Origin: Raillietiella orientalis | Lineage: Eukaryota | Length of the DNA: 64,000 nucleotides | Direction: 5' to 3' | Assembly: GCA_036172245.1 (NCBI GenBank) | Contig: JAYWIR010000032.1 | Coordinates: forward strand, 1,302,001-1,366,000 | Shown here: positions 19,323-59,200 of the stretch, one piece after another | Position numbering within the stretch: position 1 is the stretch's first letter | Layout: the number at the start of each line of letters is the position of its first letter | Position numbers and translations under genes: made by a program | Notes under the pieces: model-generated | Seen by the model: the letters and a program-made list of their open reading frames with translations, nothing else | Database searches by the model: none | What the model was told of the DNA's origin: nothing

Positions 19323-21077
19323 ATGTTTTCACGTGTGGGTGCCATCGTTTGCAAACATCGTTGCTACAATTTGCTGCAAAGATGGAACAGTTCCTTGGTA
19401 AGTGCTGTTATGTGGTTCAAAGTGCCACATGCCTCTGTAGCCACCATTAACCACAAGCAAGTATCCACATCTCAGACGAGGTGCCTATAAGCAGGTGGAA
19501 GGTGAAGACATTCAGTATTTCAAATCCATTTTGGATGATGGCCGAGTGGTAACAGATCAAGATGAACTTCTCTTTCGAAATATTGACTGGATGAAGAGCT
19601 TGAGAGGTAATTTGTTTTCTTGCGCCTGTTTATAGATAAGTAGGTTCCAGCAGAGTTTTGCTGAAACCTCATAGTGCAGAAGAAATTTCTGGCATCTTGC
19701 AATACTGCAATGCTAAAGCTCTTGCAATCTGCCCACAAGCCGGAAACACGAGTTTGGTCGGAGGTAGTGTGCCTGTTTTTGATGAAATCATTTTGTGCAC
19801 GGAAAAACTAAATAAAATAATAAGCTTTGATGAAACCACTGGTAATATATGTGTAGCCAAACTCAAGTGTTTTTAAAGATATTGTAAATAGGTATCCTTC
19901 ATTGTGAAGCAGGTTGTATACTAGAGCAGTTGGATGCTTTCGTAGCACAGCATAATTTTATGATGCCACTTGATTTGGGAGCCAAAGGCAGCTGCCAGAT
20001 AGGTGGCAACGTATCTACCAATGCTGGAGGTTTACGATTTATACGTTATGGTGGTCTGCATGGCACTACTATAGGGCTAGAAATTGTCCTGGCAGAAGGC
20101 ACAGTCATAAATTGCATGTCTGGTTTAAGAAAGGATAACACAGGATATGATTTGAAGCATCTGTTTATAGGTTCTGAGGGTACACTGGGAATTGTGACCA
20201 AAGTAGCCATCCAGTGTCCCATCAGGCCTAAGGTACTCAGTGTAGCTCTCCTTGGTAAATGATGCAAGGCACAAGCCAAATATTTACTCTTAAAGGATTA
20301 CAAACATTTCAGTCAGCAATAACCTGCCTTCAGCTATGCCGAGACAAGTTAGGAGAAATATTATCTTCTTGTGAATTTTTGGATTACCAATGTATGGAAG
20401 CAGTTGCAAGTCACTTGCATCAGTCATCCCCAATAGGAGATTTTCCATTTTACATGCTAGTAGAGGCAGCAGGATCTTTAGAAAGTAATGTTCAGCAGAG
20501 AATGGCAGATTGCATTTCGGATGCTATTGAGCACAGAATCATAGAGAATGGCACTATTTCCAGTAATCTCACCCAGTACAAGGTATAGGGCTTAATAGAT
20601 ACTGTTAATTGTGTTAGAATATCTGGCGTTTTAGGGAAGAAATACCAGAAGCATTACTATCTGTGGGTTATTGTTATAAATATGATATCTCATTGCCTCT
20701 TGCAAAATTTTACGAGGTTGTTTCAGTTATGAAAGAACGACTTGAAGGCCAGGCTATCATTCATTGCTGTGGATATGGTCACTTAGGTTGGTATTTGTTA
20801 AGGTGCCCAGTCACTTATGATAGCAGGTGATGGAAATATACATTTTAATGTAACAAGCAAAACATATGACCAAGAAGTTCAAGAAGCATCTCTGCCCTTT
20901 CTTTATGAATGGGTAGCAGAACAACAGGGAAGTATCAGTGCTGAACATGGCATAGGATTGCATAAACGAGATTATCTCAAGTATTCTCAGTTTCCTGAGA
21001 ACATCAATCTGATGAAGCAGTTGAAGTCTCTGTTGGATCCACATTCTATTTTGAATCCATATAAACTGTTTCCCTAG
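19323..21077 (+). CDS. D2HGDH: D-2-hydroxyglutarate dehydrogenase, mitochondrial
   Basis: Exons 19323-19397, 19441-19606, 19644-19841, 19892-20254, 20296-20582, 20618-20786, 20827-21077. Transit-peptide-like N-terminus. Motifs [92 protein letters not shown]. Confidence 0.97.
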
Positions 21078-24918: not shown

Positions 24919-26324
24919 TCATTTTTTTGGTTTGATTTTGTCAAGTGGTAGATCAAATTCGGAATCATTGATGTTCAGCATTAGGGAACCTGTGCTAAGA
25001 TAGACTTTGTTCTGAGACTGGGCAATCTGCAACAAATTTGACATATGAAGTCAGTGGCAGGCACAATTTAACTTACTGTTTTGGCTATGTGCTGGGATGC
25101 ACGAATTTTACGTAGCTTCAAGTAACCTGGGTTTTTACTAATAGCTTCCCCTAAGTACATGATTAAGGTACATACAGGTTGTAAGCAGTGGAGCATCATA
25201 TCAAAAATCAGATTACTAAAGCATGATCATATGACAGGCAAACAAGCACCCAGCAATTTCCACCAATAATGTGTGCCAACTCTCATGTTGTTTTTTCCCT
25301 TGCACTAACAACTAAAGGAGACATGAGCAATTGCTTTGCCTTTGGTTTTACAGCTCGCAGTTGTTCAGTACTGCAGCCAAGAATCCAGAGGCCTCAACTG
25401 GGAAACTTGCTAATAACCTTTCTCACACTTATGTATCATCATTTGAATACAACACAACGTGCTAAATGAAAAGGATATCATTTGTGCTGCTTGTGCTTCA
25501 CCTTCTGCTTGCACAATCTTCTGTTGTCTCTCTTGCTTTGCTCTTTCAACATAGAATGCTGCCCGCTGAGCCTCTTGGTGGGCAACCTATCATATGTGTC
25601 ACCTCATGAATCAACAAAACACAAAGGAAAATACTTGTTTTGATTCCACAGCAGCAGTATATTCCTTACTGAAACTAAGTTCAGTAATGGATACGTCATC
25701 AAGAATGATATTGAAGTCTTTAGCACGTTCTACCAGCTGTTTGCGTACCAACAAAGATACTTGTTGGCGCTGTGTGATCAGCTGAGATGCATTAAATTTA
25801 GCCACCACACTCTTGAGCACTTCATTACAAATAGATGGAAGCACTCGTTCATCATAATCCAAACCCAAGTGGCGATACATTACAGGAAGTTGATCAGCAC
25901 GAGGTCGGGACAGAACTCGCAAAGAAATGTTCACCATTTGTAAATCCTTGCTACCAGTAGGTGACGAAATCTTTCGGGGACGTGATCTGAGATTTCACTT
26001 GGATGAAAGCTTGCATCTGGAATGCACTTACCGAATATCAAACACAATTGGATGCTGAAACCAAGGAATCCGAAAATGAAGACCTTCTGCATATATCTGA
26101 CTTCCTATGCCTCCAATCCGGTTAAACATGATTGCTCGATGGCCTCCATCCACTATAAATGCATGCATCTTTTATCTATGCAAAGATTTGTTACCTGTAA
26201 ACAATGACTGTGAAATACCAACAGCTGAAAGCCCTGCCGCAGCTAAAAGTGTAAATGCTGTGCTCATGCCCTGGGGACCTTTCCCCATCCTTCCAAATAA
26301 ATCACTCAGCTTACTTTGTGCCAT
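24919..26324 (-). CDS. PHB2: Prohibitin-2
   Basis: Exons 26324-26195, 26152-26032, 25986-25635, 25586-25479, 25154-25077, 25026-24919. Translation [20 protein letters not shown]...[15 protein letters not shown]...[21 protein letters not shown]...[13 protein letters not shown]...[12 protein letters not shown]. Confidence 0.97.
25155..25478 (-). other. U12-type (minor spliceosome) AT-AC intron of PHB2
   Basis: Minus strand: donor ATATCCTTTT starting at 25478, branch-site-like TACCTTAAT (25170-25162), terminal AC at 25156-25155. Removal joins ...[16 protein letters not shown] in frame. Confidence 0.95.
25201..25447 (-). ncRNA. U85-like composite box C/D-H/ACA scaRNA (predicted guide for U5 snRNA loop-1 2'-O-methylation and pseudouridylation)
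   Basis: C box ATGATGA (25442-25436). D box CTGA (25211-25208) is preceded by CTTTAGTAAT, antisense to U5 UUACUAAAG. Internal hairpin GCCTCTGG/CCAAAGGC has pocket TTCTT...GTAAAA, 14 nt before H box AAAGCA (25337-25332). Second hairpin CTCATGT/ACATGAG, then ACA (25274-25272). Confidence 0.9.
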
Positions 26325-26533
26325 CACTAATGAACCCAAACTACTACCAACTTAACAACTATATTACCAAAACAATACACCTGAGATTGAAGGTGGTAAC
26401 TTTTGGTTTGGCTTGCACCTACCACCCTATAAACAAAGTCCAGATTTCGATAAGGCAATTTATTGTCAATAGTAAGCATCATTGCCTCTTACAAAGTGCT
26501 CATGGAATCACAGATCCATGACTGTGAGTAATT

Positions 26534-27454
26534 TCAACGTGAAGAGGATGAGGAAGATGATCGACTATATCTTCTGCGTCTTGCTGGACTTCGTGAGCGT
26601 GAATGAGATCGTGAAGGAGTTCTCCTTCGCCTTATAGGGGACCGTCTACGTGGTGGTGAACGTCTAGCTCTGAATCTTGGTGGTGACCACCTTCTCTTCA
26701 TTGGAGGACCTCTTCTTATTGGAATTGGGCTTCTTCGTGGTGGAAGCATTCTTGGCTTTGGTAGTAGTACAGGAGCTGCAGTTATCTCTTGTCCATCAAT
26801 TTGCCCCCCATCCATATGCTTCATTGCATTCTCTGCTTCATCAGGAGTTTCAAATTCAACATAAGCAAACCCACGATTGAGATGTGGATGCAAGCGATCA
26901 GGAGGCATTTCTACATTCTTTACAGTTCCATAACAGGAAAATATTTCAACAACATGATCTTTTACAACATTTCTTGTAAGGCGACCTATATGAATTTTTG
27001 TTGGTCGAGGTGTAGGTGATCGTTCACGTTTCTTGCGTTTAGGGGATGGAGTTCTTGATTTTTGTTCCTTCTTTTCTTTAACAGGTTTCTCTTGGGCTTT
27101 CTCTTTCTCCTTTTTTTTCTTTTCTTCATCTGAAGGTACAGGTTTTGGTGAAACAGCAGGGGGAACCTTTGCTTTAACTTTTTTGTCAACTTTGCGATTC
27201 ACACTTGAGCTAGATGAGCTCGAATCACTACTAGAAGAACTAGCATGAGAAGAACTACTAGACTTAGAACTGCTAGAACTACTAGAGTGAGAACTATCAC
27301 CCGATGAACTTCGGCTCGATGAACTACTAGAGCTTGAACCTGAAGAATCCCGCTTTTTCTTAGTTTTCTCTCGGCCTCTCTCTTTTTTGTTTTCAGCTTC
27401 TGAAGCACTATCACTGGATGAGCTTTTGGCAGGACTCTGCCTATTGCGAGCCAT
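26534..27454 (-). CDS. RNPS1: RNA-binding protein with serine-rich domain 1 (ASAP/EJC component); single coding exon
   Basis: ATG at 27454 (MARNRQSP). Poly-Ser tract, RRM KIHIGRLTRNV...RGFAYVEF...MDGGQIDGQEI, and RS/P-rich tail. AATAAA on minus strand at 26464-26459. 5'-UTR acceptor TTTTTTTACAG ends at 27503. Confidence 0.97.
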   Translation of the reverse strand: MARNRQSPAKSSSSDSASEAENKKERGREKTKKKRDSSGSSSSSSSSRSSSGDSSHSSSSSSSKSSSSSHASSSSSDSSSSSSSVNRKVDKKVKAKVPPAVSPKPVPSDEEKKKKEKEKAQEKPVKEKKEQKSRTPSPKRKKRERSPTPRPTKIHIGRLTRNVVKDHVVEIFSCYGTVKNVEMPPDRLHPHLNRGFAYVEFETPDEAENAMKHMDGGQIDGQEITAAPVLLPKPRMLPPRRSPIPIRRGPPMKRRWSPPRFRARRSPPRRRSPIRRRRTPSRSHSRSRSPARRRRYSRSSSSSSSR

Positions 27455-40896: not shown

Positions 40897-41520
40897 TGGA
40901 AGGGCCCTGGCGCTTTGGTGGCCGTGGTGGCTGCGGTGTCCGCGCGTGGTACGATGCATCGCGAGTTCGAATCCCGCCCAGGGAAGGGGAGTTGATGAGG
41001 ATGGGATGTGTGCGTCGTTGACTTTCGGTCCTCCCTTCGCAGGATAGGGCTGGTTGGCCTTGGAGACTCCGGGTGCGGCACTAATGGAACCAGCCGGGTG
41101 CTTCCTCTGACCGGCTGGGATCGGGAGTTGAGCCTCCGGGGTCCTTCCAAGAACCAGAGTCATTTCCCTTCGATACTCCTCTCCAGATGTGAAAATGAAA
41201 TAGTCCCCTTTTTCCTCGGGGAATGACCCTTCCTCGCGTACCGTTGAGCTGGTTGATACCTCCCCATTGTGTCTAGAAGCGCGTTGCTCCCTTCGGGGAG
41301 AGACCCCTTCAGAGAAAATTTGGAAGCGTGGCTTCGAGGTTCTCTTCAGAGGAGTGAACGAGGAGCGGATCCTTTCCGTGTTCCTTTCGGAGAGGATGGG
41401 GAAGAGGTTCCCTTTGGAGAAAACCAGGGCGAGGGTTCCCTTCCAAGATTCCCTCCCAAGCGTAAGAGGGGGAAAGACTCCTTCCTTCAGAGCCCTTCCC
41501 ATATTCATAGGGTACCCTTA
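40897..41520 (+). repeat. Dispersed ~600-bp repeat with tRNA-like head (SINE-like), copy A
   Basis: A-box-like TGGCCGTGGTGG and B-box GAGTTCGAATCC (about 40963-40974). Colinear similarity with the reverse complement of 48195-48777 (shared TGGCTGCGGT, GTTGGCCT, GGCTGGGAT, GAGCTGGTTGAT, GGAAGAGGTTCCCTT, ACTCCTTCCT). Confidence 0.75.
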
Positions 41521-41799
41521 TAAATTGAAGAGTTACGAGCACCCTCGGGAGACATGGGCGGCGTCGAGGAGCATCGTAAGCACCCCCGAAGAGGCGGACT
41601 GTTTTTCAGCACTTGGAGAACCGAAAAGGAAGCAACAGAAATTGGGAAGAAAGCAGCAGAAACAGAAGACCCCGGAAAGATCTCCTTCCGAAAGGCATTT
41701 TCACCATCCTAGGCCAATAGCAATGACCCCTCTGTGATGTCGCCACCAGTTTTTTAAAAAGATCCTGGAAGTCAGTTCAAGGCTTCCCGCGAAGGAGGG

Positions 41800-42400
41800 G
41801 AGGGGAACGGATACTGGCAACAGCTTGCGGAGACGACGGGAAGCTCGGAATTCGGCTGCAGAGCCGGCAGAGTCAACGGGGCGCCGGGGCAGTAGGAGAG
41901 AGTTGGCACGGTGCGGCTTCCCTTTCTCCTGCTTGAAGTCGGGCGCGACGGGGGCAGCGGGCGGATTTGCTCGCCGGCGCCGTCAGGGCGCATTCCCTCG
42001 CGTCTCCAGGAAGCGCCTCCCCTTCACGGATGCGGGCGGGAACCGCAGGAAGAATACGAGCGCGGGTCCCCCCCCCCTCTTGCCGTTCCGAATCCTTGCC
42101 GCCTAGCCCGGCGGAAGCAGGGGGGGCAGACCCGGAAACTCCTCCTCCCAGCTTGCGGGGGCGGCGCGTCCGCCCCGGGGAGGAAGGAAGGAGGGGTTAG
42201 GGAAGATGTATCCGGCTGGGTCCTCCTCTTCCGGTCTGCGTTCTGACGGATCTTGGAGGGGATGCCAGGTCGCGACTAGGTCCACCGCCTCAGGCTGGAC
42301 CCGATCAGTCGCTCTCCCGTCCTCATCCCTCAAGCTCGACGTCGAAGCCAGGTAAAGCCACGCCTTCCCTAACGACCGGGAGCAGCGGGACCGAGGCGGT
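41800..42400 (-). mobile_element. Possible decayed Gypsy reverse transcriptase/connection-domain remnant
   Basis: GRATDRVQPEAVDLVATWHPLQDPSERR...AGY resembles G..TDP.K..AV..WP.P....E.R.FLG.AGYY. Downstream VPTLSY resembles P.LAYP. Confidence 0.3.
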
Positions 42401-42646
42401 GCGGGGGTGCCAGCGGTGGCTGGGCCACGCCCCTGCCAGGGAGCGTTGCGCGACAACTTGGCAGGCGGCCGCCGAGGGGGAGCTCCGCGCTCTCCCTCCC
42501 TCTCCTCCCTGGCGCCGTGTAATTTTTAAGAGGAGATGCCGGAGCTTTCCCGGAGGAAGTCGGGAAGGGAGGCGCGCCCGGGAAGCAGGTCGCACTCTCC
42601 ACCCCCGCTGCGCCTTCCTGCCGATGCCGCCGCGCTAGCGAGCGCC

Positions 42647-43951
42647 ATGCTGATCGCCCAGCTCGCCGCCGTCGCCATGATAGCTGCAGTCGCCCCCGCG
42701 CCGCCCAAGCGGGAAGCCGTGGAGAACCTGCTCAAGGTAGCCTCGGGGGACGCCGCGCTCGGGATGGGGTCGGCAACCGCGCGCGGTGTCTTTCAGGTGT
42801 TTGGGCTGTCCGCCCCTGCCCACCTCCGGCCCGACAGCACGCCCCCGAAGTACATGCTCGACCTGTACCACAGCACCGTCGACCGCCGAGGCGTGAGCCG
42901 CGCCCCCAACCCGTACAACGCCAAGGTCATCCGCAGCTACACCGCCGTGCCTCGGGGCGACGCGGGGGACGGCCTGCGCTTCAACTTGACGGGTATCGGG
43001 GACGACGAGCACATCCTGGGGGCCGAGCTGCACGTCTTCTCCGCCGCGTCGCGCCTCCGCAGGGATTCCGTCTGCCAGGTACCCCACATCCCTTCTGCCC
43101 GGAGAGATCAACCCTCTCTCCTCCTTTCTCCTCTCCCCGGCCAGATGAGCGTCTACCAGGTCGTCCGGGAAGAAGGGAAGCTGCAAGACGCGTCCTCCCA
43201 TAGGCTGCTGGACGCCAAGTACGTGCTGCTCTCGACCGCCGGCTGGGTCATCTTCGACGTGCGGGAGGCTGCGGAGGAATGGACCAGGCACCAGGGGCGA
43301 AACCGGAGACTGGTCGTTGCAGCGGCGTGCGGCCCCGACCTCCGGTCGCCGGGTCCGGGAGTGCCCCTACGCTTCGGTGGCCACCCGGAGAAGCAGCCTT
43401 TGCTCGTCGTCTTCGCGGGCCGACGCACCGGGGACGACCCCTTCGTCCAGCAGGGCGAGATCTCCGCCGCCCCCCGGAGAAGCGGAGGCGACTGGGAAAC
43501 CGGACGCGGAGTCTTGCTTCCCACTCCCTCCTCTCCTGGAGCGTCGCCTTCACTGGGGAGCCAGGCCGAGCGCCGGCGGAGGTCGACCACAGGGGACGCC
43601 CCGGGGCGGGAGGACGAGGAGGAGGAGGCCGACGGTGACTGTGCGTCCCACGAGATGAAGGTGGACTTCTCGGAGATCGGGTGGTCCTCGTGGATCATCT
43701 CGCCCAAGGAGTACAACGCGTACTCGTGCAGGGGCCGCTGCCGCTTCCCGCTCAACCAGGCCCAGAGGCCCACCAACCACGCCACCGTCCAGAGCATCGT
43801 CCACGAGCTCGGCCTCCACGAGAACGTCACCGTGCCATGCTGCGTCCCCACGCGCCTCCTTTCGCTCTCCCTGCTCTACTTCGACGAGAACAACAACGTT
43901 GTCATCAAGCAGTACGACGACATGATCGCCGAGCACTGCGGGTGCCACTGA
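42647..43951 (+). CDS. admp: ADMP-like TGF-beta/BMP ligand, paralog A
   Basis: Exons 42647-42736, 42797-43078, 43145-43454, 43542-43951; the last intron is tentative (GC donor, GAG acceptor). Signal peptide, prodomain PPKYMLDLY...NPYNAKVIRSY, furin site RRRR. Seven-Cys mature domain with ADMP hallmarks IGWSSWIISP, FPLNQAQRPTNHATVQSI, LLYFDENNNVVIKQYDDM. AATAAA at 44034-44039. Confidence 0.92.
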   Translation: MLIAQLAAVAMIAAVAPAPPKREAVENLLKVASGDAALGMGSATARGVFQVFGLSAPAHLRPDSTPPKYMLDLYHSTVDRRGVSRAPNPYNAKVIRSYTAVPRGDAGDGLRFNLTGIGDDEHILGAELHVFSAASRLRRDSVCQVPHIPSARRDQPSLLLSPLPGQMSVYQVVREEGKLQDASSHRLLDAKYVLLSTAGWVIFDVREAAEEWTRHQGRNRRLVVAAACGPDLRSPGPGVPLRFGGHPEKQPLLVVFAGRRTGDDPFVQQGEISAAPRRSGGDWETGRGVLLPTPSSPGASPSLGSQAERRRRSTTGDAPGREDEEEEADGDCASHEMKVDFSEIGWSSWIISPKEYNAYSCRGRCRFPLNQAQRPTNHATVQSIVHELGLHENVTVPCCVPTRLLSLSLLYFDENNNVVIKQYDDMIAEHCGCH

Positions 43952-44680
43952 GGGGATCTCCGCCTCCACCCCCCCCAGGAAGGACCTCGAAGCCTCCCCT
44001 GCCCGCCCATGGGGGACCGGAAGCCGGCGGAGGAATAAACGAGAAGGGGGTCGACAAGAGGTCGAAAAGGGGAACCGGAAGATTCAAAGGGAGGAACAGC
44101 ATGGGGAGACTGGGTGGTGGGAAGGCAACCGAGGAATGAACGAACCAGGAAAGAGGTCGGCCCCCGAGTTCAAAAGGGGGGACCGGGAGGTGCAAGGGGG
44201 CTCTGGGGTGAGCAGCCTGGGGAGACTGGGGCGTGGGAAGGGGGAGAAGGAACGAACCAGGCAGGAAGGGGGGAGACCTTCAAAAACGTCTCTTTGCACT
44301 TCCCAGTGACCCCCAGACCGCGCGCAGGACAGGATGGGGTGGAGGTCAGTTGTGTGCAGAGGGGTAAAGGTTAGTGGCGGGAGGGCGAGCCCTCTCCCCC
44401 GTGCTGGGACCTTCCCTGTGGCCAAGCCTCCTCGTGCCGGGCGGGACTCCGCTCTTCGAGAGCTGCTGCCCGGGTTCCCGGAAGGGCAGCAGGCCGTAGG
44501 TCCGCCTGCAGCGATGGAGACGTGCTGCCCGGATGGATAAAGACAGGAGTCCTGGCGCCCCCTCCGCCGGCGCCGCCCTGCTCCCCGTACCTGGCTGCCG
44601 TGTGTCTCGTCTTTATTGAACGGGCGCGTCGGTCTTGCCGCCTGCCATCGGAAGGGGGGATGAGGGGGCAGGGGACGCCC

Positions 44681-46201
44681 TCACAGGCAGCCACACTCCT
44701 CTGCCACCATTTCGTCGTACTGCTTGATGACGACGTTGCCGCTGTTGTCGTAGTAGAGCAGGGAGATCGGGAGGAGGTTGCTGGGCACACAACAGGGCTT
44801 GGTGGCGTTCTTCTCCAGTGTCAGCTCGACGACGGTGCTCTGCACCATCGCGTGGTTGGACGGACGCTGTACTTGGCTCAGCGGGAAGTCGCAGTGGCCG
44901 CGGCAGGTGTACGCGTTGTATCCCATGGGCGAGATGATCCAGGAAGACCAGCCGATCTTCGGGAAGTCCACGAAGAGGTCGTAGCGGGAGCACTCGATGC
45001 TGGTCTGCGCCGCCGCGGGCGAAGCGGGTGGCGGCGGCGGCGACGAGGAGGGCGAGGTCTGCTCCTCCTCCTCCTCCTCCTCCTCCTCGTGCTGTTCCGC
45101 GGAGCCGCCGGGACTCCTCCTCCTCCTTCTCTTCCTGGTCTCCTCCAGGCCCATGCTGCTCTCCAGTATGTTGTCCACGGAGAACACGGTGTACACAGGC
45201 AGTTCCTTGTCTGGACGCGGGTGCCAGGGTCAGCGAGGCGAAGGGGAAGGGGGGAAGGAGGAGGAGGGAGGGAGGGAGGGTCGGCGGGCTACTCACGTGG
45301 AGGCAGCTTCTGCGGCCGGTCCTGGTTGTTGAATAGGACGAGGAGGGGCTGCTTGGGGCTACCCCGAGCCGCATGCTGGTAGGGGAGTTCTGCGGCCGCC
45401 TGGTCCAGCAGTGTCCTGGCGACCAGCAGGAACCCCCTGTTGGGACTGACGCTTTGCAGCCACTCTTGGATGGCGAGCCGCACGTGGAAGACGAGCCAGC
45501 CGGAGGTCGCGGGCAGCACGTAATGGCTGCCGATCAGCTTCTGCCCGGTGGCGTTGCTCGGGTCATCGCCGTCCCCGGCGCCCACCTGGTAGACCATCAC
45601 CTGCAGCAGAGAGGGCAAGGAAGGTGTGTGTATGTGTGGAGGGGGAGGTATTTCTCCTCCGGGCGACGGAGGTGGTGTGCTTCCTCACCTGGAAGATGCC
45701 GCCTCCACCCTCCTGGGCGGCCGCGCCCCCCGGGGGACCGCCGCTCTTCTTGAAGACGTGCAGCTCCGCCTCCAGCACGTACTCGTCCTGCTCGACACCG
45801 GAGATGTCGAAGAGCAGGTGGGAGGTGGTGCTGCGCTCCGCGGCCAGAAAGCTGCGGATGATGCGCGCATTGTGGGGGTTCGGTATTCTGGTGACGCCGC
45901 CCACGTCGGTGATGCTGTTGTACAGGTCCAGCATGTACTGCGGCGGCGGGGCGGCGTTCCTGGGGCGACGCGCGCCCGGGGAGGGCATCCCGAACACCTG
46001 CGGGGACGGATCGCGGTCGGCTTCCCCCTTCTCCGAGAGAGCCCCCCCCCCACTTGCCTGCTTCAACTTCTCCATGGCTTCCTCCTTCCTGGAGACGGCG
46101 GGCGGGTCCCGGGGCACGGGGCCTCCCGCCACCGCGCCCGCGAGCAGCAGGCCCGCGAGCGCCCACACCGCCGCCGCCGCTACTGCACCTACGCGGCTCA
46201 T
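44681..46201 (-). CDS. admp: ADMP-like TGF-beta/BMP ligand, paralog B (Pinhead-adjacent)
   Basis: Exons 46201-46058, 45997-45689, 45600-45297, 45210-44681; intron 1 is GC-AG (CAG|GCAAGT). Signal peptide, PPQYMLDLY...NPHNARIIRSF, furin site RKRRRRR. Mature domain IGWSSWIISPMGYNAY...FPLSQVQRPSNHAMVQS...NVVIKQYDEM. AATAAA on minus strand at 44617-44612. Confidence 0.92.
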
Positions 46202-46840
46202 CCTCTTCCGGGGGCCGACGCGCGCCGCTGGGCTTCCCCGAGCGAGTGGGGCTGCCGCCTCTCTCGGCGCCGCGACCAGCCGCCGCCCGCAAGGGGCGCC
46301 CGCCGCCGCGACCGAGTGACGACGACGAGGCTACGGCGTTCCGGGAAGGCGGCGGCGGCGGAGGCAGCGGCAGCGCGCGCGCGCGCGCGCAGGCGCGGCA
46401 CCGCCCTCTCTCGCGGACTGGACTGGCCCCGGAGCGCCCCTCACCTCCGGCGCCCCGGCGGCGACCGACCAACCGACCTCGCCGCCGGGACGGCGGGCGA
46501 TCGCGACCCCCCCCCCTCCCGTCGACACCCCCCGGCCACCGCCGCTCGAACCCGGCCGCCCCCGCGAGCCGGAAGAGGGAGCGACGGGGAGCAGAAGACA
46601 ACGCAGCCAGAAAGGATCTTTTTTTATTCGCCGCCGCCGGGCTGAACGCCCGAGGTCGCCGCGCTCCGAAGCCTCCTCCTCCTCCCCTCCTTCCCCCGGA
46701 AGAACGGGGAACCGGCATGGGGAGCAGCAGGAAAGGCGCGATCGGCCCCTCCTTCTCCTTCTCCTCCTCCTCGGGCGGGCGTGAAGTCCTGGGAGGGGAG
46801 GAAGGTCGAGTGCAGGCGAAAGGGGGTCGTCCGGGAGAGG

Positions 46841-47220
46841 TCACGAGCACTGGCATTCCTGTATGGACATCAGGAAACTCCTGTACCCGTCCTTGTTGGT
46901 GTAGGGGTGCCGCGTGTAGCCGGTGGGGTTGCACTTGGTGGTGCGCTTCAGCGACATCAGGCAGTTCTGCGGTATCCTGGGGTCACTAGGGTAGAGGGCG
47001 CGTGGGGAAGGGGCCCGGGCGGCTGGAGCGAGGGCGGGACGAGGGAGCGGATGCTCACCTGAGGACGCACTGGAACATCTCCCGGGAACACACGCCGACG
47101 CACGCGCCGATGTTGATTTGCTGGAAGGCACACAGGGAAAAGGGTCAGTCCCGGGATCTCGAGGGACGGGCCAAGGGGAGTTTCACGACTCCGATCTCCC
47201 TCCCTCTTCTTCCACTCCTC

Positions 47221-47273
<53 letters not shown>

Positions 47274-50200
47274 CCCTCCTACCGACGGGGGGAGGACACA
47301 GCGCCGCGGGCAGGACGGGATTGACGGCGGTGATTTCGGGAGACTCCCGCGATTTGGCAACCCTGGGTGCTTCTGCGCCTTAGCTATTTTTGGTCGCCGC
47401 CACACAGCACGCCCACCCCGCCCCGTCCTCGCTCAGCCGTCGCTCTTCGCGCCCGTCTCCGAATCGTCCTGGGACCCGCGCGCGCGTTGCCTTCTCCCTC
47501 CTCCCCTCCTCCTGCTCCCTTCTTCCTTGTCCTCCCTCCCTTCTCTTCCTCCTCCAACCTGCTTTCCTCCTCCGGTCTTCCTCTTCCCTTCCTACTCTTT
47601 CTCCCTTCCTTCTTCCTTTCCTTATCCCTTTCTTTCCTCCTCCTCTTCTTCTCCTTCTTTCCCCGCGCTCCCGGCCAGCGTCCCCGTTCGGACCGTCCGG
47701 AAGAAGGGGTCGCGAGGTGAGAAGCCACGAGGCGTTGCCTGTAACAACGCGAGCCTCCCTCGGAGGAAGCGTCGGCAGAGCAGGCAGGCAAGCAGGAGCG
47801 CCCGGGCGTCGGTTTTCGGTCTTCCCACTTCCGCGCTCGCGCGCGCGGGAGGCGGAGTTCGCAGCGTCTCTTCCCGTCTGAGAGGTAGCGCGGCCAGCGT
47901 CCACCACGACTTTCCCCTGCGATCATTCAAGGGGTCCTCCGTGGGGTCGACGGAGACGCTCCTTTCCTCCCGGCTCTCGGTGATACGCGCTCCGGCTCGG
48001 TCTTCAGGCCGCCGGCGAAGTCTCGCCCCCCCCCTTCCCCGCCACACACACACACACACATAACCTCCAGAACGCGGCCTCTTCACACTTCCGTCGCGAA
48101 AGCGAAGAGACGCACACCTGCGCGAGCGAACGGCCGGACGCATCGTGGACGACGAACGAACGAGACCGAGCGCCGTCTCCCAGTCGGGGGGTGACCCGTA
48201 GGGACCACCCTACGAACCCAGAAAGGGCTACGGAGGAAGGAGTTTGCCCTTCTCACGCTTCGTAGGGAAACTCCGGAGGGAATCCTCCACCCTGGTTGTC
48301 TCCGAAGGATCCCCAAGGGAACCTCTTCCTTGTTCTCTCTGGAGGGTTTCCCTGGAGAGGACCGCTCTTCGTTTCCTCCTCGCAAGGCGCTCCAATTTAA
48401 CACTCTGGAGAGATATCAATCAACCAGCTCTATGGAACGCAATGGAGGGTCCCCCTTGCAGGCGTGAGACGGCTCCGTTTTCACGAACGAAGGGGAACCC
48501 TCGAAGGGTACAGTGAACAGTGTCCCTTGATGTCTGGAAGGGACGCCGAAGGGTCAACTTCCAATCCCAGCCATTCAACGGGGGTACCCGGTTTCCGTCT
48601 TCCACCAGTGCTGTACCCTAAGCCTGCAGGCCAACAGGCATCGGAGAGGACTCGAAACCCGCGACGCATCACCCATTTCGCAGCGTCGGTCCTTATCCGG
48701 GTGGGACTCGAACCCGCAACGCTCGGTGCCACGCTCGCGGAGACCGCAGCCATGCGGCCTGTCCAGAGCCGTCTCCACGGGAACGACAACGTCGACAGGA
48801 TCGACCCTCCCGTTCCTGCCAGAGAGGTAGGCGAGCGGCAGTCCCGCATCCCCAAGTTCTGTCCTCTAGGCTGCGAAAGGAGAAAAAAAAGAGGAGGAAA
48901 CGACGAAGAGAGGAGCATTTTTGGCACGGTCCCTTCACTCCCATTCTAATAAAGGTCTGCTTTTCTCTCTTCGCGTCGATCTTCTCTAGAGACGTGATTA
49001 GTAAATCCATCTTCAGGAAAATCTGAATGAGCTATTAATAGCCTTCTCTGAGTCATCCTGCATGTAAGCAAACTATTTGTAGCTACAAAAAAAGACTCTG
49101 CTTATCTGAGTCACTTTTACAAAAATACTTTTGGTCGTTTTTTTTTCTTTGTCATTTTATTTTTTTTTTTTGTTCACTGCATAATTCTTGATTTAAAAAT
49201 GAATCTTTTTCGAGAGAAAAAGGGGAGTCCGGGGGTGGGAGGGAATCTTTTATTTTTTCCTTTCTTTGTTTCTTTCTCCCTTTCTCCCAGCATATTTTAA
49301 GAATTACTCTAGAGTTTTCGAAATTTGCTGAAAGAAATCATGGGCTTGCTTTTTCTTTATAAAGTACATTCAGCACACATACGAACGTCTGTAAACTTCT
49401 AATACATCGACATGGTTAATGTTGATCACAGTTAAAACCTCGAAGCCAGGTAAGTCGATCGTGGAATGTATATACATATATTTCATGCCCCCCCCCCCTC
49501 CTTTCCTTTTTGGCCTTTTCGTTTGTCGAAAGCTTCGTTGAGATTTTCAGCCAGCAAGGTTGAAAAGAAGGGAGATGAAGACCTCTCTCATCTTGGACCC
49601 AAAATCGAATGAACTTGCAATAATTATTCCACATCACAGAACACTACGGAAACATCAGACGTTGCTGAAGGTCAAAAACCGACCTTTCACATCTCATAGT
49701 TCGCAACTGGATAGATCTGTGTGTGTGTGCTTCAAGAGACGGAAGCTTCCGTACACAAAGAGAACACCATGTCAGTGTGTACTTTAAAGAGCAAAGGCCC
49801 ACCACCACCGTAAAGCGCGCGTCTCTCATTCCGCCCGTGTGACGAAACGCCGTGTAAACATCGCGTTCAGTCGCTTTCCCTGGTATTTCATTTCCCTTTT
49901 AATGTTTCTGTTTCATTTCTGTTTCACCGAAGTGGAAGATAAACAAGTGCGCTTGTAATGACATGGCACTGAGGAACAGATTCTCCAGAAAAGGCACAGC
50001 CATCACGGTCTTTACAGCCTGTTGCACGGTCACCTTCTGAAGGCGCCTTCTTAGCAAAGTACAACCAAAAGAAAGCGTTTTCAACACTTTGCATGGCACG
50101 AAGGAACGTACAGTACGGGAAATCAGCCGGAAGGTTACGGAAATGCAGAAAGACGCGACCGAACCAACGAAACCTTGCGAATGCTCGTACGTGTGGCAAC

Positions 50201-53200
50201 AAAACACGCATCCGTACAGGACTACGAGTTGTATACAGCTGGCTTCTCTCTACATATATTAAGCTCAATATGAAAAAAAAAAAAAAAAAAACCTCATCGT
50301 TTTCGGCGGAAGCTTTTCCAAAAGGAACCACTCGGGATGTTTAACTGAAATATTTTTTCTTACAAAGAAAAAATGTTTCTCTTCGGTTCGGAAACGGGCC
50401 GACTGGGATGCATGCGTTCTGCAACAGCTCTCGAGATGGCAGCATCAGACCGAAAAACGATCCGACCTCTCGATAAGCACATCGCGAAGCGAAAGGGGTA
50501 ACTGATAAACAAAATTACTTACTAAAGTCCTCGTGTTGTTTGGAGAACTTTCTTCAGATCCTTCCATTACAGAATGATCGTATACATATTCAAATCTGTC
50601 TAATCGATAACAGGATCCTAAACAGCCACAGGAAACTACTACATTAATTCCATATGATCCTAAACATGGATGCCAATTATAAGTTGATTAGCATAAGTAC
50701 CACATCTACCGTTCGGACTGTTCACGTGACGAGTGGTGTTTTGTGTTGGCTGGCATTGTAGATCTGAAGGACAATATGTATTGGTTAATTAAATTCAAGA
50801 AAAGGCTAATTATTCAATCAGTGTTCCTCCCAGCATCATTCTAGAACAAAATTGATTGCGGTCCTAGAGGCGCTGTGCTTGCGCGAGATCAGCGCAGCTC
50901 GGAGCAGTCGAAGCGCGAAGACACGTTTCATCCTTCACACGACCATTTCGCGGAAGATTGCGGCTACCCACTCAGATTCGTGATGCTCGTTTTTCATCTT
51001 ACGAACGTGCGCGCACGGTACACGCCGGCCCGACGCGTGCACCTTGTCCCTGCGCGTGTCGCGTGGACACAGTCAGTGCAATGCACAAGCACGCGGGTGT
51101 CCACTCTCTGGTCGCCTCCCCCCCCCCCCCCGACTTCTTGCGGTTTCTGGGAACCGACTCTCTCAGCTTCCCGGGGCGGCCACGTCCGCCCCCTCCCCCG
51201 CTCCCATGCGCGTGTACGATTTTCCCCAGCCGGTGGTGAACGCTATGCATCCGAGATGCATCATCCGGCGTCACGGAGGATCCCGTTTCAGAGGAGCCGG
51301 AAGGTTCCGTTCCTCTGGAGAATCTCTTCCTCTCTCACGCCCCGCAGCCGCGCTCCTGTTCTGTCTCCCTCATCCCTTCTTCCGAGGAGGGCGTCAGTCG
51401 TATGCCCCCTCTGCCAGCCGCAGTGGGAGTGACGGTCACCGGCAACGGATAGGTCGGTCTCCGGGAACGGGCGTGCTGCGAGCGCTCACCCGTTCCCGGA
51501 GCGGGCGATCCTCCGACCAGACTCCTTTTTCGAAAGGCCTTCCGGCCGCGGTGACCCGCGGTTGCACTCGTCTGAGGCAAAAAAGGAGGGCAGGTGGGGA
51601 TGAGAGGGGGGAAACGGAGGGGGCATGTCGGGTCGAACGACACTACTTAGGTGGTCCCTGCAATCAGCACGGAAGCCCACACAAGCAGGGCGCGCGCCCT
51701 CCCGCGATGCGGACGGACAGCGCGACGATAGCCGCTCCTGGGGCGTTGCTTCTTTTCTCCTTTCCCGCCTCCGCGCCTGAGCGCGAAGGTCGACGCGGAG
51801 CCGAGGGAGCGCGCGCTGGCGGCTTCCGGTCAAGCCGACCCGCGATCCCAGGGTCGAAGGAGCATCTCGTCCTACAAGAGGGCCTCTTCAGGAGGTCTGG
51901 TCCAGCCAGTGGTTTCATCATCGCCACAAAGAAAGTGGCCTCCAGACGGACGGGGTTTCGCCCTCCACAAGCCAAGGACCATCCCCGACCCCACCCCCTC
52001 CATCGTCAAGTGTCGTTGGAAAGGGAGAGCGGCGGGCATCTCGGGTGACCCGAGACTGGATTACAAGGGCGACCTCCTCATTCTCCTTTCCGCTCTGAGG
52101 GAAGTCTTGGGCGACACAGCGAAAGAGTTGCAGCGTCCGCGGACGTTTCGATCGGCCGGCTTGTGACCATAGGGGGAGGGGGGAACTCTTGCAGGCTGGC
52201 AGGAGGGAGGCAGGCACGAACCAGACTTGGTCCCGACCTCTTTCGCGGGCAAAAAGTCCTGACCCCGGTTCTCTAAGTTCTTGCCGGTGAGCTGGCCTCG
52301 CTCGTCCGAGACACCGGAAACGCATCGGGCAGCAGAGCACCCGCGAAAAGAGAGCTGACGAGTGTGGATACACCCTTCCGGCATCCAACTCGGAATTCAT
52401 TCGTCTTCGCTGCTTCCCCAGCCCGAACGAAACAAAAAAAAGCTCTCTCAAAGGGAAAGTTTGAAAAGAGCGCGTTCCAAGGGGTGGTGGAACCGGAAAA
52501 CCGCGAGGGAGCGAGGGTGGTAGACCGACGGTTCGAGAGAGAGCCGGGAAGCGGGTCAGAAACATCGCGCACGGGAATCTTTCGGTAGGGGAGGGGGAAG
52601 CCTATCGAGCGATGCAATGCACGCGAGCAGCACCTCTCACGAGATCCGAAATCTCGGCGCGGTGTCCTCAGTGTGCCCCCTGACAGGCCTCCACAGTTGT
52701 GCTCATCAACCGCATCTGTTTATTTTCCAAATTCGAGCTTCACGAATTCAGTGCCAGCTCTCTACGAATTTATTGAGTTCGCTTCCTTCCCCCCTCCCCC
52801 CCCCCCGGTCCTTGCATTGTTTCTGCCCTCTAAGGAAAAAAAAGAAAAGGGGTGGGTGGGACGAAATCATGGACAAAGCAGTATGGTTTCCTGTGGCTTG
52901 CCACTGGTGTGTGTCACCAATACAACTTTAGCACGGGAGGACAGAAGCCTCGCAGAGACAGCAGCGGTGGGTCACAGACCTCGACAAGGTGTGTGCCCTT
53001 CCTGTTTAGTTTCAAGTGGATTCGGACGCTGAGCTTCTCTTCTGGCTCCCACCGCAAGAGTTTTAACTCAATCGTCGCCGTTGCAAGAGTTCGCTCATCC
53101 GATTTCTGGCGAAGCGTTGAAATCCGTTCCAAAAAACGGCTGTGGCTTTCTGCAACTGCGACAGAACGTTCCGACATGCTGGAAGCTTTACGGCTCATTC

Positions 53201-56200
53201 GAACACGTGCTGTTGCTGAAACTGTGGTCAGAAACTGCGTCCTCTTCTCCGAGGAACTCTTCACGTACTAACAGTAGCAAATGTTCTGGAAGATTGCTCG
53301 TAATCCTGCCAGATTGGGACGTGCCACAACGATCTGCATATTTCTTTTTCTTTTTCTTTCAATATCGCATTTAATCATTTTTTTTTTTTTTTTCTTCCCC
53401 CTGCAGGAAACCAACCATTCATGCTTCTCATCATCGTTTACTTTTTCCTCTTCGAGATGAGAATCATTCTGACGAATTTCCGAACCGATGACAGTTTTCG
53501 CAGGCAGGCTATTAGAAATGTGATAACAGAATGTTTAGTGGGATGCAATTATAGTAGTGCACGAAAAAAAAAAAAAAAAAAAAAAGGTGTACAGCTGACA
53601 AAGATATGCGACATAAAGGCAACCGAGAGAGTTTGCGCACGTTGCCCCGGTTACCGTCTCATGTATTTATAACTTACAAGAGAGTTTCCATGGAGCAACT
53701 CATTGGTGGAATTTCGGTTCAGATTATTTTATGTGCCTTACGTTCGTGCTGAAATGCCCGATGATTCGTTTCTTGTACTCCTGTGTTCGCAAATTTTGTG
53801 GTGAAAGTTGATGCAAAACTAGTGTTTGCAAATTTTCTAGTGAAAAATTTTCGTTGGCTAAAAACAGAAACAGCAGGATCGGGAGCAATTAGCTACAAAT
53901 ATCCGTGTGAGGCCAAGTGACATTCAAAAACATCTTGGTCAAGTTGCTGTGGTTGTTTTTTTCCCCTCCCTCCCCCCTCACGTAAATATTCTCGACCACT
54001 TTCCTTTAAACATCAATCTTTAAGCACATTAATCTTCCTCAAAAACAGGTACATACAATTCAAATTTCACAATAAAGACTGGAAGATTATCGAAAGCAAT
54101 TTTTTTGTAGCATAAAGAGAGTTTTTTTTTTTTTTTTAATAGGAGGGGGTTCTTTAATTGCATTATTTTTATAGCAGAAAAGACACGAAAATTTTCGATC
54201 TTTCCGATCTGGTTTAATTGGTGGTAGTAACAAATTTGTCGTTTCATCTGTAGCGCATGTCGGGCTACGGCGTGTGGCAATCCTGCACACATTAAGTGTA
54301 TGTGCACGTTTCGATGTCTCTAAATGTGCGTACATTTTCAAGAAGAAACAGAATAAGGGTTTATGTAATCTGAAAACGGACTTTCCACGTGGCATGGCAG
54401 GAAAATTAAAGAAATTGCTTCGAGATCTAATAAAATTGTTACGTCTGCCATCTTAGCACGGCAGAAAAAAACAAATAGTAAACGTGGGGAGGAAGGGAAG
54501 GAGTGGGTGGGAAGGAAGAAGGGTTCTGTCAAGTTTTGGGGGGGGTCCTAACCTGCTCGAAAAGGATGGATTGCCTGATTTTCTCGATTTTTTTTTTTGC
54601 CTGCAAATCTGCAAACGGAAATAAACCCCATTCTGATCTTTCCGGTGTGCAGACCCATCCAAAATGGACCTGTAGCGTGCGTGTGACTGCCACAAGGCCG
54701 AGTTGCTCTGCTTTGCGGTGTCTTTTCGACCGAAAAAGTGACCCGTCAAGTACCAAGGAAAAATACGATCCGAATGTGGATGCATAAATCGGCAGATGCT
54801 GGTCCTCCCCCCCCCCCCTCCACTCAGCACACGGGGGAGGCGAATGGATGGCGAATGTATTTCGTTTCATTTTATTTTTTCGCTTCCTTGCCATCGAGAG
54901 TTTTTTTTTTTTTTAAAAAAAAAAAAATCAGATCCTATCGATCGGTTTCGCCTAGCCACAGTAAGTGAGCCAGTCTGCATTTGTCGAAACTTGTCCGCCA
55001 TCTGAACGGTTTCGTGTGCGCACTGCTGTGCTAAAACTGCACGTCGCATTTAGGGATGCGAAAAATCTGCGGCAGATTTCGATTCCGATTTCGCAATATG
55101 TAAGCGCCGTAGCGTTGCATTCGGTAAGGACGGAGATTTTTTTTTATTTTTTTTTTTTTTACCTTGAGAGCATTGTCCAGAACAGGTTCCGACATCTATA
55201 AGCTCTTCAAAAGGAGTTCCAGGAAAATAACGAATGATTTCTTCTTTTCTCTTACATGGACCGTTAGTTGATTCACACTTGCAATCTTCAATGACTGGAA
55301 CTTCACGCAGACCTTGAGTGGTGTAGCGACGTTCCAGTCGTTGGATGCTGGGTACGCACAGAGAACCGGGGCCACAGGCGTCTCGGTTGTGTATGTCTTG
55401 CAAAATCTAATGGAGATCAAAGTGTCTGAGCTGTTGCAAAGAGTCGCAGGCCGAGGGGCGGTCGCGACGCGGAACGGGTGCTATCCGAGCGAAAGGTCGC
55501 TGCCTTGCCCAGAAAGGTTCGCCCGGAGGAGGAAGGGGGGAGGGGGAGGAACCGTTCCCGATTTTCCCTCCCGGTCTCCCGGTGCCGCTTCCCATCTGCG
55601 CCTGCGGCTCTTTTCTCCCAGGTCGCGCGCGCACGCGCTCTCGCGAGAACGAGGAACCTTGGGCAACCCGACCCACCCGCGTGTCCGGCGATCGGAATGC
55701 TCGGCGTGAACGGGTCACGTGCTGGAAAAGCGCGCGCTTGCGCTCTCTCTCGAAAAGCCACGCCGGAGTGTTCCCGTCGCCTTCGCCGCGCGTCTTTTTT
55801 TGGCTTTCCTCGCGAGCACTGCGCACTGCCGGTCCGCCTCGGAGAGAGGCGACACGCGCATCGACAAAGGGGCGACATCCTCCCGCGAGGGGACCCAAGA
55901 AGCGTAGGACCGATTCCTACTCGAAGGTGGAGTAGCATCTTCTCCGTTTCTTGCGAACCCCCCACGGCTTCCCTCCCTCTCCCCTCCCCCCTCATCTTCT
56001 CTCAGTTTTCTTCGCGCTTGCGACGGGTGCGTGCAGCTGAGCATCGCCGGCTATTCGTCTCGAGGAGTTGTCAAGGCGGCAGCCGTCTGACCTCCCGAGA
56101 GGAGACTGGTCGCTTCGAGGTCTCCGGGGTGCGCCCTCGGAGTCTCGCGTCTCGCGAGCTGGAAAAGGGAGGAAGTCCCGCGGGTACCGGGGTTGGCAGG

Positions 56201-59200
56201 CGTTGCACCATCTCTCTCTCTCCTCTCTTGGGTCGCGCTGTCCGTCGCCATCTTCTCCTCCCTGGTGCGCCAAGCGAACGAGGACGGCGTCAACGCGAGC
56301 GGAGCGGCGCTGCTCGCTGCCCGAGGTCAGACCCAGGCGCGGGCCTTTCTGCGGAACTGGGCCCGCGGCTGCGGAAGGGAACGCGATCTCTCCTCGGTTC
56401 GAGGACCGCAGGACGAGGACACGCGGACTCTCCCGGAGAGACTTCCGGTCGGAGCGTTCGCAAAGACCGCGAAGGATCCGTTCCGTTCTCCCCCCCTCTT
56501 CCCCCTGCTTCCAGGGAATCCCCCCCCCCCCTTCCTGAGCGGGCGGCGAAGCGCCCCTCTGCCCTCGTCCCCTGAGATCCTCCAAGTCTATGAGGATGCT
56601 GCATACCCTTCCGACCATGCCGGCACGCTCAGAGCACTGCGAGGAAAGGGGAAGAGGAGGTTCCTGTCGGGAGCGGAAACTGCAACAGCGGTCCGGAGCC
56701 TCTGAACACCAAGGAAGGTCTCCAAAAGAGGGGAACTGCTCCCCCGATCCTTGAGATCCCTTCACCATGTCCCTTCTGCTTCCTCGGATGCCGGGCTGGA
56801 CCTGGACGAAGGCTCTTTCGGCTTTGGGGGGCATTGGCAGCCCTCTCAGGCTGGGAGGGCTCTCCTCCGTCCGTTTCAGGAAGAGTCGGAGAGGTAGCCC
56901 AGTGCGGTGAACGGGGAGGAGGAAGCGTTGGGGTCTGAGGATGCTGGAGATGAGGGAGGAAACCACCGGGAGGAACGGACTGCTTCGAACCGATGCTCCC
57001 TTGTGGGCCTCATGGCCGACGCCAAAAGGATCGAGTAAGGAACGAGGAAGTCGGATGAGTAAGTGAAGAGGAGGAGGAGGAGCATCAGCACCAGCATCTC
57101 CTTACTTCCGAATTTCCTGAGTTCACGCCAGTGCCGCAATTTCTTCCCTACCCGACGAAAGAGGAGGAGCGAAAGCTCCAGGAGGGCTGCGTACGGGGCC
57201 GACGTCTTCCTCTGCTTCCGTGCCTCCTGCTCTCTGCAGGACAGAGCAGGAAAGGTTCAGAGAAACAGCTGGTTCTTCCCTCGCACGAGATGCTGCTCGG
57301 ACCGCCTTTATCCTCCGGCAAATGCGCTCACTGTTCCTCTCTTCCTGTCCCTCCTCCACAACCAAGATTCAAGGAATTCGGTCCCTCCGGGAGGGCCACA
57401 TGTCGAGATCCAGGGGAATGCACACGTTTCCCCCGAGGTTGCATGACGATGGGTCGCAGACCTCTTGCACATCAGGAGGCGGCGCGTCGACATAGCCGGC
57501 GGCCAACTGCTGCTGCTTTGCACAGTGAGGATGAGGGGCTTACAGGAAATGGCAGGGGGCAAGAGTCCGAGGCGCTAATGGCAAAGCGCTCGGTTCGCGA
57601 CACATTCGTATTTGGATGAATTTTGAAGAATTGTCGGAAGCAGGAACCCACAGGATCCTGGAAGTCCACTCTTTCTCCTCCCGCCGCTTCAGGCCTCTTT
57701 CGTTTTCGTCCATCACTGAGACACACTCCTCTCACCTACGCTCCTTCGAAAACGGGTACGACAGCGCTGGTAGTATCTGACTGCACCCTTCCATGTAATC
57801 GGGAAAGCAACGGCGGGAAGAGAGCAGGGTACCTCCGTTTTCGTTTCCGGGAGATGGCGGCATTGCCCGCTTCCTGCTAACCCACAGCTCGGACGAGACA
57901 CAAACATGGAAACCACCTCTCCTCCTCTCCCTTCCGTTCCTCCATAAAGCGTTTTTTAACTTGACATCCAATGCATCTTCCAACCTGACCGCGGATAACC
58001 AACGGTGAACTCGAGGGGTTCCATAAAATCCAAGACCAAAGGCCCCATGATCTCACAAGGTTCCGTGCAGCCTCCGAACCGATATAGGATTTATTGTCAC
58101 TCTTAGAGAACTGCGGACTGAGTGAGTGAGTGAGTTCGAGGCAGGCACACACCTCGGTCATGTTTAGAAAAAAAGAGATATCTTTCCAGGACAGCACGAG
58201 AAGTACGTTCCAGTGAAGACAGGATCGCTGCAAACGGAACGTGGGAATGAGGACGAAGGACGTGCCTCGGGACTCCTTAGAAAGTATCATCTCAAAAGGC
58301 GTTCCAGAAGTCTTGGATGGGTCATTTTCAGACAAATAACTATCTGCTGGAAAATGTGCACCCACTCTTTGAGATAGTTCACACTTTTCGATTCTTAAAT
58401 ACGCTGTTAATTCGAAACAGCATTGTGCAGACATCATTAGGAGCTGAAATGTGTTGCACCCCAAATCTGTAACTACCACAGCTGATTCGCTTGCGGGCTC
58501 TTAGCCGAAAACGAAAGAAAGAGACTTTGATAGTGATAAATAAAAACTAACTGTCTCTTCTGTATTGTTTGTGTTTCCTATGCTAGCTAATCTCAGAGGT
58601 CTGCGAGCCCATTAGAGAAAAACAAGATTTCATGAGCAAAGACAAGGCTAATGGTGTCTAGCTTTTGGCTCCTTCCTGAGGCAGCGATTTGCACAACGAG
58701 CCTTTGTGGGAAGAAGGCACCCAAACATGAAGATAGATGAAGAAGGAGGTGAGTTAAAGGTTGAATCCTGGAAGGAAGCCTCCCCCGATTTCATTGCTGC
58801 ATTCTTGATTCCTCTCCAGGAAGAAAGCAGGACTTGATCGAATGCACCGGGGAGTAGCTCCACACCGATACAAAAGATGAAGTGTGAAAAAGGCAGAATG
58901 GGCTGCTTTAGCCCCAAATGAAGAACGCCATGCTGAAAACAGTCAGCAAGATTGCCTTTTCGGGCAATGAGAACGTCAATTTTTTTCCGTATGCTTGCAA
59001 CAGGAGCTTGCAGAAATGTTCGTTGAGATGAAAGTCTCAAAGCCCGTGCAAACAGCAAGTTTGCTGTTTCGTGCCCATGAAACAGCTTCCAAACTGGAAG
59101 GAGCACTTGTGCAACCACCTCTCATCATTCTTATGCAACGCGAACCTTCCATGAGAGTTCAAGAGGCAAAGGAAAATGGGTCCTGTTACCTACATCTTTA

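Follow-up and report, generated by a model that had tools for sequence, protein, structure and literature searches.

Both members of the Pinhead-ADMP gene pair appear to have been duplicated on the spot in the genome of a crustacean-like arthropod. The locus lies in a 64,000-nt window (C32:1302001-1366000) of a 210-Mb assembly and extends past its end; coordinates beyond 64000 continue the window numbering (position on contig C32 = 1,302,000 + coordinate). Four intact genes are predicted in the order ADMP-A > < ADMP-B < Pinhead-1 < Pinhead-2, over 34.3 kb (Table 1). In all likelihood this structure arose through local duplication of both members of an old Pinhead > ADMP tandem within one pancrustacean-like lineage: ADMP-B would have kept the ancestral slot directly behind Pinhead, ADMP-A would be a tail-to-tail copy in inverted orientation that has an upstream region to itself, and Pinhead-2 would be a direct tandem copy. 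The preliminary description of the window had presented a very compact cluster of three genes at 42647..47120. This underestimated the locus, since another complete Pinhead follows at a distance of 4.9 kb, beyond the window, Pinhead-1 spans 17,451 nt and starts past the window end, and only the last two of its seven exons fall in that interval, the whole cluster measuring about 34 kb. The spacings given there are accurate: ADMP-A and ADMP-B converge with their stops 729 nt apart (given as about 730), and the Pinhead-1 stop lies 639 nt from the ADMP-B ATG (given as about 640).

ADMP precursors are cut at a basic site, and the secreted dimers act via BMP receptors and Smad1/5 (Mad). The proteins encoded by ADMP-A and ADMP-B each have a signal peptide (recognized by eye), a TGF-beta propeptide, a basic cleavage site and a mature domain with conserved cysteines, and both match PF00019 and PF00688 above the cut-off (ADMP-A, E 1e-34 and 9e-18). 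Introns 1 and 2 of ADMP-A (60 and 66 nt, GT-AG, phase 0) are located at the same aligned codons as those of ADMP-B (60 nt, GC-AG, phase 0; 88 nt, phase 0), which has a third intron of 86 nt in phase 1. In the same place, ADMP-A carries an 87-nt segment that contains no stop, whose donor is a weak GC and whose acceptor is GAG. Third-position G+C in this segment is 19/29, versus 329/363 in the exons; as low a value occurs in none of the 336 29-codon windows of the ADMP-A exons and none of the 401 of the ADMP-B exons. The segment therefore fits an intron, without proof, and a third ADMP-A intron is plausible. The two proteins are 46% identical overall (174/377), with approximately 39% identity in the prodomains (107/274) and 67 of 103 positions identical in the mature domains. 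Both form long branches and have a third-position G+C of approximately 0.89.

As had been proposed, the cysteine-rich exons join into one Pinhead-homologous transcript model, Pinhead-1, which would encode 353 aa with 23 Cys in seven exons. Its ATG lies 291 nt past the window end; of exon 1 just the last 16 nt fall inside the window, together with all of exons 2-7. The six introns, all GT-AG, measure 229, 8236, 4399, 50, 3402 and 73 nt (16,389 nt in total). Pinhead-2 was found by a genome search with one Pinhead exon (about 20 kb off; 60 kb examined), and 4882 nt separate its stop from the Pinhead-1 ATG. Its introns are likewise all GT-AG, the six intron phases of the two genes are identical (1, 0, 1, 1, 0, 2) and the predicted proteins share 145 of 332 positions. 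Both models were built with 48 of 125 homologues (those of 240-450 aa), and in each protein a hydrophobic stretch lies at the N-terminus and a (D/N)(I/V)GxC motif occurs in three repeats. Pinhead gave 125 phmmer matches at E <= 0.001; the 20 that were looked up come from arthropods, echinoderms and amphioxus, with none labelled Pinhead by its source. The first match in Atlas is a cluster named Pinhead (0.87), taken as a lead only, and two Pinhead exons and one homologue scanned against Pfam matched no family. The 3' ends of intron 4 (50660-50709; 72643-72824) are alike in both genes and read an in-frame His-x-Cys, just before a site at which 16 of 30 homologues keep a Cys that is missing from both Pinheads; splicing at this intron may be non-canonical. 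A 369-aa frame in Pinhead-1 intron 2 (55995-57101) has no Pfam match and is not counted as a gene.

Splicing and transcription are supported by contigs of one metatranscriptome run (X1, share of words 0.08) from a related organism, which were aligned to 41500-58500. Ten contigs aligned, distributed over the identity classes 99+, 95-99, 90-95 and <90 as two, five, two and one, respectively. They join across introns 1 and 2 of ADMP-A and intron 1 of ADMP-B and fit introns 2 and 3 of ADMP-B by length. Five of the six introns claimed for the two ligand genes are thus matched by the relative's spliced RNA; the sixth, the 87-nt segment of ADMP-A, is unconfirmed, with no contig there. Contigs also fall on Pinhead-1 exon 7 and on the bin with exon 3, and no Pinhead-1 splice joint is among those listed from the contigs of this interval. 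One match extends the ADMP-B 5' untranslated region (UTR) to at least 46302. Because its contigs match both ligand genes, the related organism evidently transcribes ADMP-A and ADMP-B. Purifying selection on ADMP-B is indicated by the 40 listed differences (of 79; all 40 in the ADMP-B contig), 37 of which are synonymous versus 0.24 of possible changes. The contigs of ADMP-A, ADMP-B and Pinhead-1 stem from one study and one bulk run, which neither ranks expression between genes nor informs on which cells are involved.

The evidence for duplication within one lineage comes from protein trees, all of them computed under LG+G4 with no mixture model. In a mature-domain tree of 53 rows, in which the remaining four ligands of this genome, named by resemblance, serve as outgroups, ADMP-A and ADMP-B fall in an ADMP clade of 49 rows that includes Saccoglossus and Ptychodera ADMP (98/96), apart from the BMP2/4, BMP5-8, activin and myostatin types; the original assignment of both ligands to ADMP is upheld. 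They are sisters in full-length trees of 27 rows (25 of 47 homologues; 99/98) and 19 rows (15 homologues and two outgroups; 99/97). Approximately unbiased (AU) tests reject a place outside all other ADMPs for ADMP-A (p 0.012) and ADMP-B (p 0.017), in a set with no ADMP2 sequence. At mature position 89 both have Ile, versus Leu in 45 of 45 homologues, and both replace Gly39, which is kept in 43 of 45. Pinhead-1 and Pinhead-2 are likewise sisters (100/100; 32 rows, 30 chosen homologues) and have in common a Gly found in none of the 30 homologues. The nearest groups in the trees are pancrustacean, with weak support. Because each pair forms sisters, the copies are most simply read as lineage-specific duplicates and not as an ancestral triplet. 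This was one of the outcomes foreseen for the phylogeny (Admp1, Admp2 or lineage-specific duplicate), here obtained from trees that hold no true ADMP2. Of the ancestral module proposed in the preliminary description, the Pinhead-1 > ADMP-B pair stands, while the extra ADMP and the extra Pinhead are better explained as duplicates of this lineage.

Several points weigh against this history. Pinhead-2 and all Pinhead-1 junctions are known from sequence alone. Support for ADMP-A with ADMP-B is 80/90 in a third full-length tree, comprising 18 database proteins and seven stitched partial metagenome ADMPs with the 87-nt segment removed from ADMP-A, and below 80 in the mature-domain tree, where the nearest row to ADMP-B is ADMP-A. 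Shared G+C-rich composition and long branches could help unite the two, although the compositionally odd row of Gryllus stayed apart from them in the 27-row tree. Post-duplication change makes up approximately 70% of branch length for ADMP and 45% for Pinhead. Since these shares differ, two separate events are weakly favoured (rates shift after duplication), with ADMP probably duplicated apart from Pinhead and perhaps before it.

Genome searches recovered no further members of either family. At least six PF00019 matches were obtained, of which two are the ADMPs described here; the other TGF-beta mature domains are BMP2/4-, BMP5-8-, activin- and myostatin-like. Maverick, BMP3 and BMP9/10 types are absent from these matches, which split exons may escape. 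A search with one Pinhead query (P0051) gave at least five matches, four in the cluster and one weak match elsewhere (E 0.65).

Pinhead-ADMP linkage has been published from arthropods to vertebrates (PMC6989304), and ADMP duplicates recur in several lineages, including bryozoans, which have two admp genes (PMC13121700), and vertebrates (PMC3296468; for further literature see PMC8034876, PMC8753366, PMC4571091). These features are already known; the novelty lies in the in-place doubling of both partners, one ADMP being reversed relative to Pinhead. Titles and abstract openings, from a collection with few subscription papers, mention no duplicated Pinhead and no cluster of two plus two; the synteny figures and supplements of Imai et al. 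2012 (Science 337:964) and Chang et al. 2016 could show similar duplicates. In Ciona intestinalis, Pinhead is reported directly upstream of ADMP in tandem, as here (PMC6989304, PMC8188501). The present cluster differs in that both genes are doubled and one ADMP is inverted, and the Ciona-type arrangement (Pinhead immediately upstream, same strand) is true of Pinhead-1 > ADMP-B but not of ADMP-A or Pinhead-2. The zebrafish pinhead/admp (PMC6989304) and Xenopus Pnhd/Admp (PMC8188501) genes belong to the same families and are adjacent, with a secreted multi-cystine-knot Pinhead. Unlike here, Pinhead function has been tested in both, as agonist versus antagonist, and the accessible portions of these two reports describe no duplicated Pinhead. 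Sea urchins and hemichordates likewise have two ADMP paralogues in one invertebrate genome, ADMP1 and ADMP2, whose expression lies at opposite poles and is oppositely controlled by BMP (PMC4600745; PMC11226491). These stem from a separate, older duplication, whereas, among the ADMPs sampled, the two copies of this locus are sisters.

Among arthropods, ADMP is reported present in Strigamia and absent from Drosophila (PMC4244043). The millipede Chamberlinius has a lineage-specific pair (CHUAL_006955 and CHUAL_013856; 100/100), though on contigs of different length and far less diverged than ADMP-A and ADMP-B. In the crustacean Daphnia galeata, ADMP (CAH0111354.1) and Pinhead (CAH0111355.1) have consecutive accessions, which points to a linked single pair. 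The database records of Daphnia and Chamberlinius, taken without their genome sequences, showed no cluster of two plus two. One metagenome contig (L086:2852-14964) has Pinhead > ADMP approximately 2.2 kb apart, then a convergent myostatin/myoglianin-like ligand, and no second ADMP, within an examined locus that leaves a further 16 kb of upstream sequence outside. A similar myostatin-like ligand occurs in the present genome on contig C5. A Pinhead match was found in one of 58 metagenome loci, most of which are too short upstream to tell. An apparent second ADMP in another metagenome contig (L049:1-3950) was rejected, as that contig is perfectly palindromic over its 3950 nt, an artefact of assembly mimicking an inverted duplicate.

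The copies may, tentatively, have been kept because regulation was split between them, with ADMP-B cis-coupled to Pinhead-1 and ADMP-A free. At most approximately 320 nt separate the candidate Pinhead-1 polyA signal (46628) from the furthest matched 5' point of ADMP-B (46302). With so little private DNA, any distal enhancers of ADMP-B have to be situated within or past Pinhead-1, inside ADMP-B, or downstream; they would most likely be located in the Pinhead-1 introns, which amount to 16.4 kb. Pinhead transcription may disturb such intronic enhancers, as proposed for Ciona, and the ADMP-A promoter, on the far side of the cluster, would have escaped this coupling. It had been suggested earlier that the short spacer reflects transcriptional interference or enhancers within the Pinhead introns; beyond the scarcity of private DNA, no evidence for this was found, nor is it refuted. 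The predicted 3' ends of ADMP-A and ADMP-B are approximately 570 nt apart and do not overlap; the ADMP-A signal is possibly incidental, since it lies inside a degenerate repeat.

A rival reading, approaching an even chance, is that the copies are redundant dosage copies in a gene-dense genome, kept for dose or drifted into tissue splits, and that the short spacer has no regulatory meaning. The window provides a control for short spacers in two unrelated housekeeping genes, RNPS1-like and PHB2 (names by resemblance; 24960-27454, minus strand), which are arranged head-to-tail only 209 nt apart. BMP-response motif enrichment was not found with four consensus patterns in nine regions including the spacer (36 tests), and the full-length BMP silencer-type consensus is absent from those regions. 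A silencer-type match at 48163-48177 was discarded: it recurs in three of 100 local shuffles, one match is reached in 51 of 100 shuffles of the whole window, and after 36 tests it does not count as evidence. Independent ADMP duplications are many, as the millipede, bryozoan and vertebrate cases attest, and dosage copies are compatible with the proposed duplication history. From zebrafish it is reported that repression is tied to BMP signalling and that admp did not spread in a pinhead mutant (PMC6989304), so that cis-interference may not be universal, and single knockdown of ADMP in Gryllus reportedly caused no patterning defect (PMC8051952). Against mere dosage stands the Pinhead > ADMP order, kept from arthropods to vertebrates, which has outlived both duplications. 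ADMP-B, moreover, departs from five of 52 near-invariant mature positions, three of them within positions 45-53, versus three for ADMP-A (range 0-8 among 45 homologues), which mildly hints at changed specificity.

Pinhead is reported to bind and inhibit Admp in Xenopus, binding or modulation of ADMP by Pinhead being known from Xenopus and Ciona (PMC8188501), and zebrafish Pinhead acts as a BMP-like ligand, an agonist (PMC6989304). A more elaborate and decidedly doubtful extension of regulatory splitting is that this arthropod evolved anew, and independently, a two-pole ADMP system resembling that of sea-urchin ADMP1/ADMP2, in which ADMP-B would be cis-coupled, ADMP-A would be expressed where Pinhead is, and the Pinheads would be paralogue-specific partners, matching the changes at near-invariant mature positions of ADMP-B. 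If so, the locus would carry its own control for the model of cis-interference outside chordates. A complex prediction for two mature ADMP-B chains and one 81-aa Pinhead exon scored 0.02, for a fragment modelled without an alignment, and carries no weight in either direction.

The upstream regions of the two ADMPs share a single non-coding similarity, which has the appearance of a mirror-image duplicated enhancer. This interpretation was rejected, as both copies belong to a high-copy dispersed repeat (3341 and 3187 first-look candidates, 40 scored per query). Identity between the two is 64%, lower than each shows to most of 21 other copies (picked as best matches); they are not sisters and are read as independent insertions. 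A third copy lies at approximately 104923-105388 (L013). The unit is approximately 600 nt with copies about 70% alike, its head presumably resembles a tRNA B-box, and it is probably an old short interspersed nuclear element (SINE) family.

Local duplication of each gene has also to be set against a single segmental event that copied the entire Pinhead > ADMP unit and, with later inversions or a transposition, would have given two matched ligand-modulator pairs. Duplication of both genes, to similar overall identity, would suit such an event. It is nevertheless rather unlikely: it requires either a tandem copy and two inversions, or a copy made in inverted orientation and then moved; the post-duplication branch shares differ, which is weak evidence; no credible Pinhead remnant was found upstream of ADMP-A; and the one shared non-coding match there is the repeat. 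Retention of ancient ADMP1 and ADMP2, of ambulacrarian/xenacoelomorph type, as an ancestral triplet would suit the deep divergence of the ligands and the multiple ADMP2 losses across Bilateria raised as a possibility (PMC11226491), and conversion between the neighbouring genes could hide an old split, but this is highly improbable given the union of ADMP-A with ADMP-B in three full-length trees, the AU tests, the shared rare residues and the absence of a high-identity conversion tract (DNA matches of 67-87% at conserved coding stretches). No firmer verdict is drawn because of the LG+G4 model, the long G+C-rich branches and the lack of a true ADMP2 in the trees; word-index protein searches with a Pinhead exon and the last ADMP-B exon (one match) yielded no ADMP2 or Pinhead sequences.

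Within the literature covered, Ciona is the only case in which the reason for Pinhead-ADMP linkage was put to a test in cis. With two ADMPs in one neighbourhood and only one behind Pinhead, their comparison tests whether position matters, and the keeping of both a second ligand and a second modulator suits the study of ligand-antagonist co-evolution. For now, the locus is to be read as a local duplication of a known pair.

Table 1. Coordinates of the predicted genes and associated features of the duplicated Pinhead-ADMP locus.
Feature	Position	Strand	Details
ADMP-A	42647..43951	+	exons 42647-42736, 42797-43078, 43145-43951; open frame
ADMP-A possible third intron	43455..43541	+	87 nt, phase 1, GC donor, in frame; unconfirmed
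AATAAA, candidate ADMP-A polyA signal	44034..44039	+	
Degenerate two-copy purine-rich repeat	44019-44261		between ADMP 3' ends; unit about 100 nt, copies 68% alike
AATAAA, candidate ADMP-B polyA signal	44612..44617	-	
ADMP-B	44681..46201	-	exons 46201-46058, 45997-45689, 45600-45297, 45210-44681; 428 aa; open frame
Spacer Pinhead-1/ADMP-B	46202..46840	.	639 nt; Pinhead-1 3' UTR, then G+C-rich ADMP-B promoter and 5' UTR
AATAAA, candidate Pinhead-1 polyA signal	46628-46623	-	in the 639-nt spacer
Pinhead-1	64291..46841	-	exons 64291-63985, 63755-63643, 55406-55163, 50763-50710, 50659-50523, 47120-47059, 46985-46841
Pinhead-2	76958..69174	-	7 exons, 385 aa, 26 Cys; outside window (loci L009, L010)
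Dispersed repeat copy upstream of ADMP-A	40900..41530	+	
Dispersed repeat copy in Pinhead-1 intron 5	48186..48780	-	mirror position upstream of ADMP-B

Past Pinhead-2 lie open frames of 1084 aa (L011:3422-6673, plus strand) and 200 aa (L011:6996-7595, minus strand), neither with a Pfam match. The 1-kb bins at 80001-83000 and 86001-88000 are strongly CpG-depleted (observed/expected 0.17-0.47; approximately 0.7-1.25 in the cluster). Loss of Chordin/Sog was considered and is not claimed: a CHRD family search of the genome was empty, but three clustered VWC matches occur on contig C3 (4941483-4942426; L097, L111, L114), which we take to resemble a Chordin/Sog C-terminus. A further VWC cluster at C7:394246-397010 may be crossveinless-2. 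Within the window, an exon at 19888-20262 (plus strand) appears to resemble D-2-hydroxyglutarate dehydrogenase.

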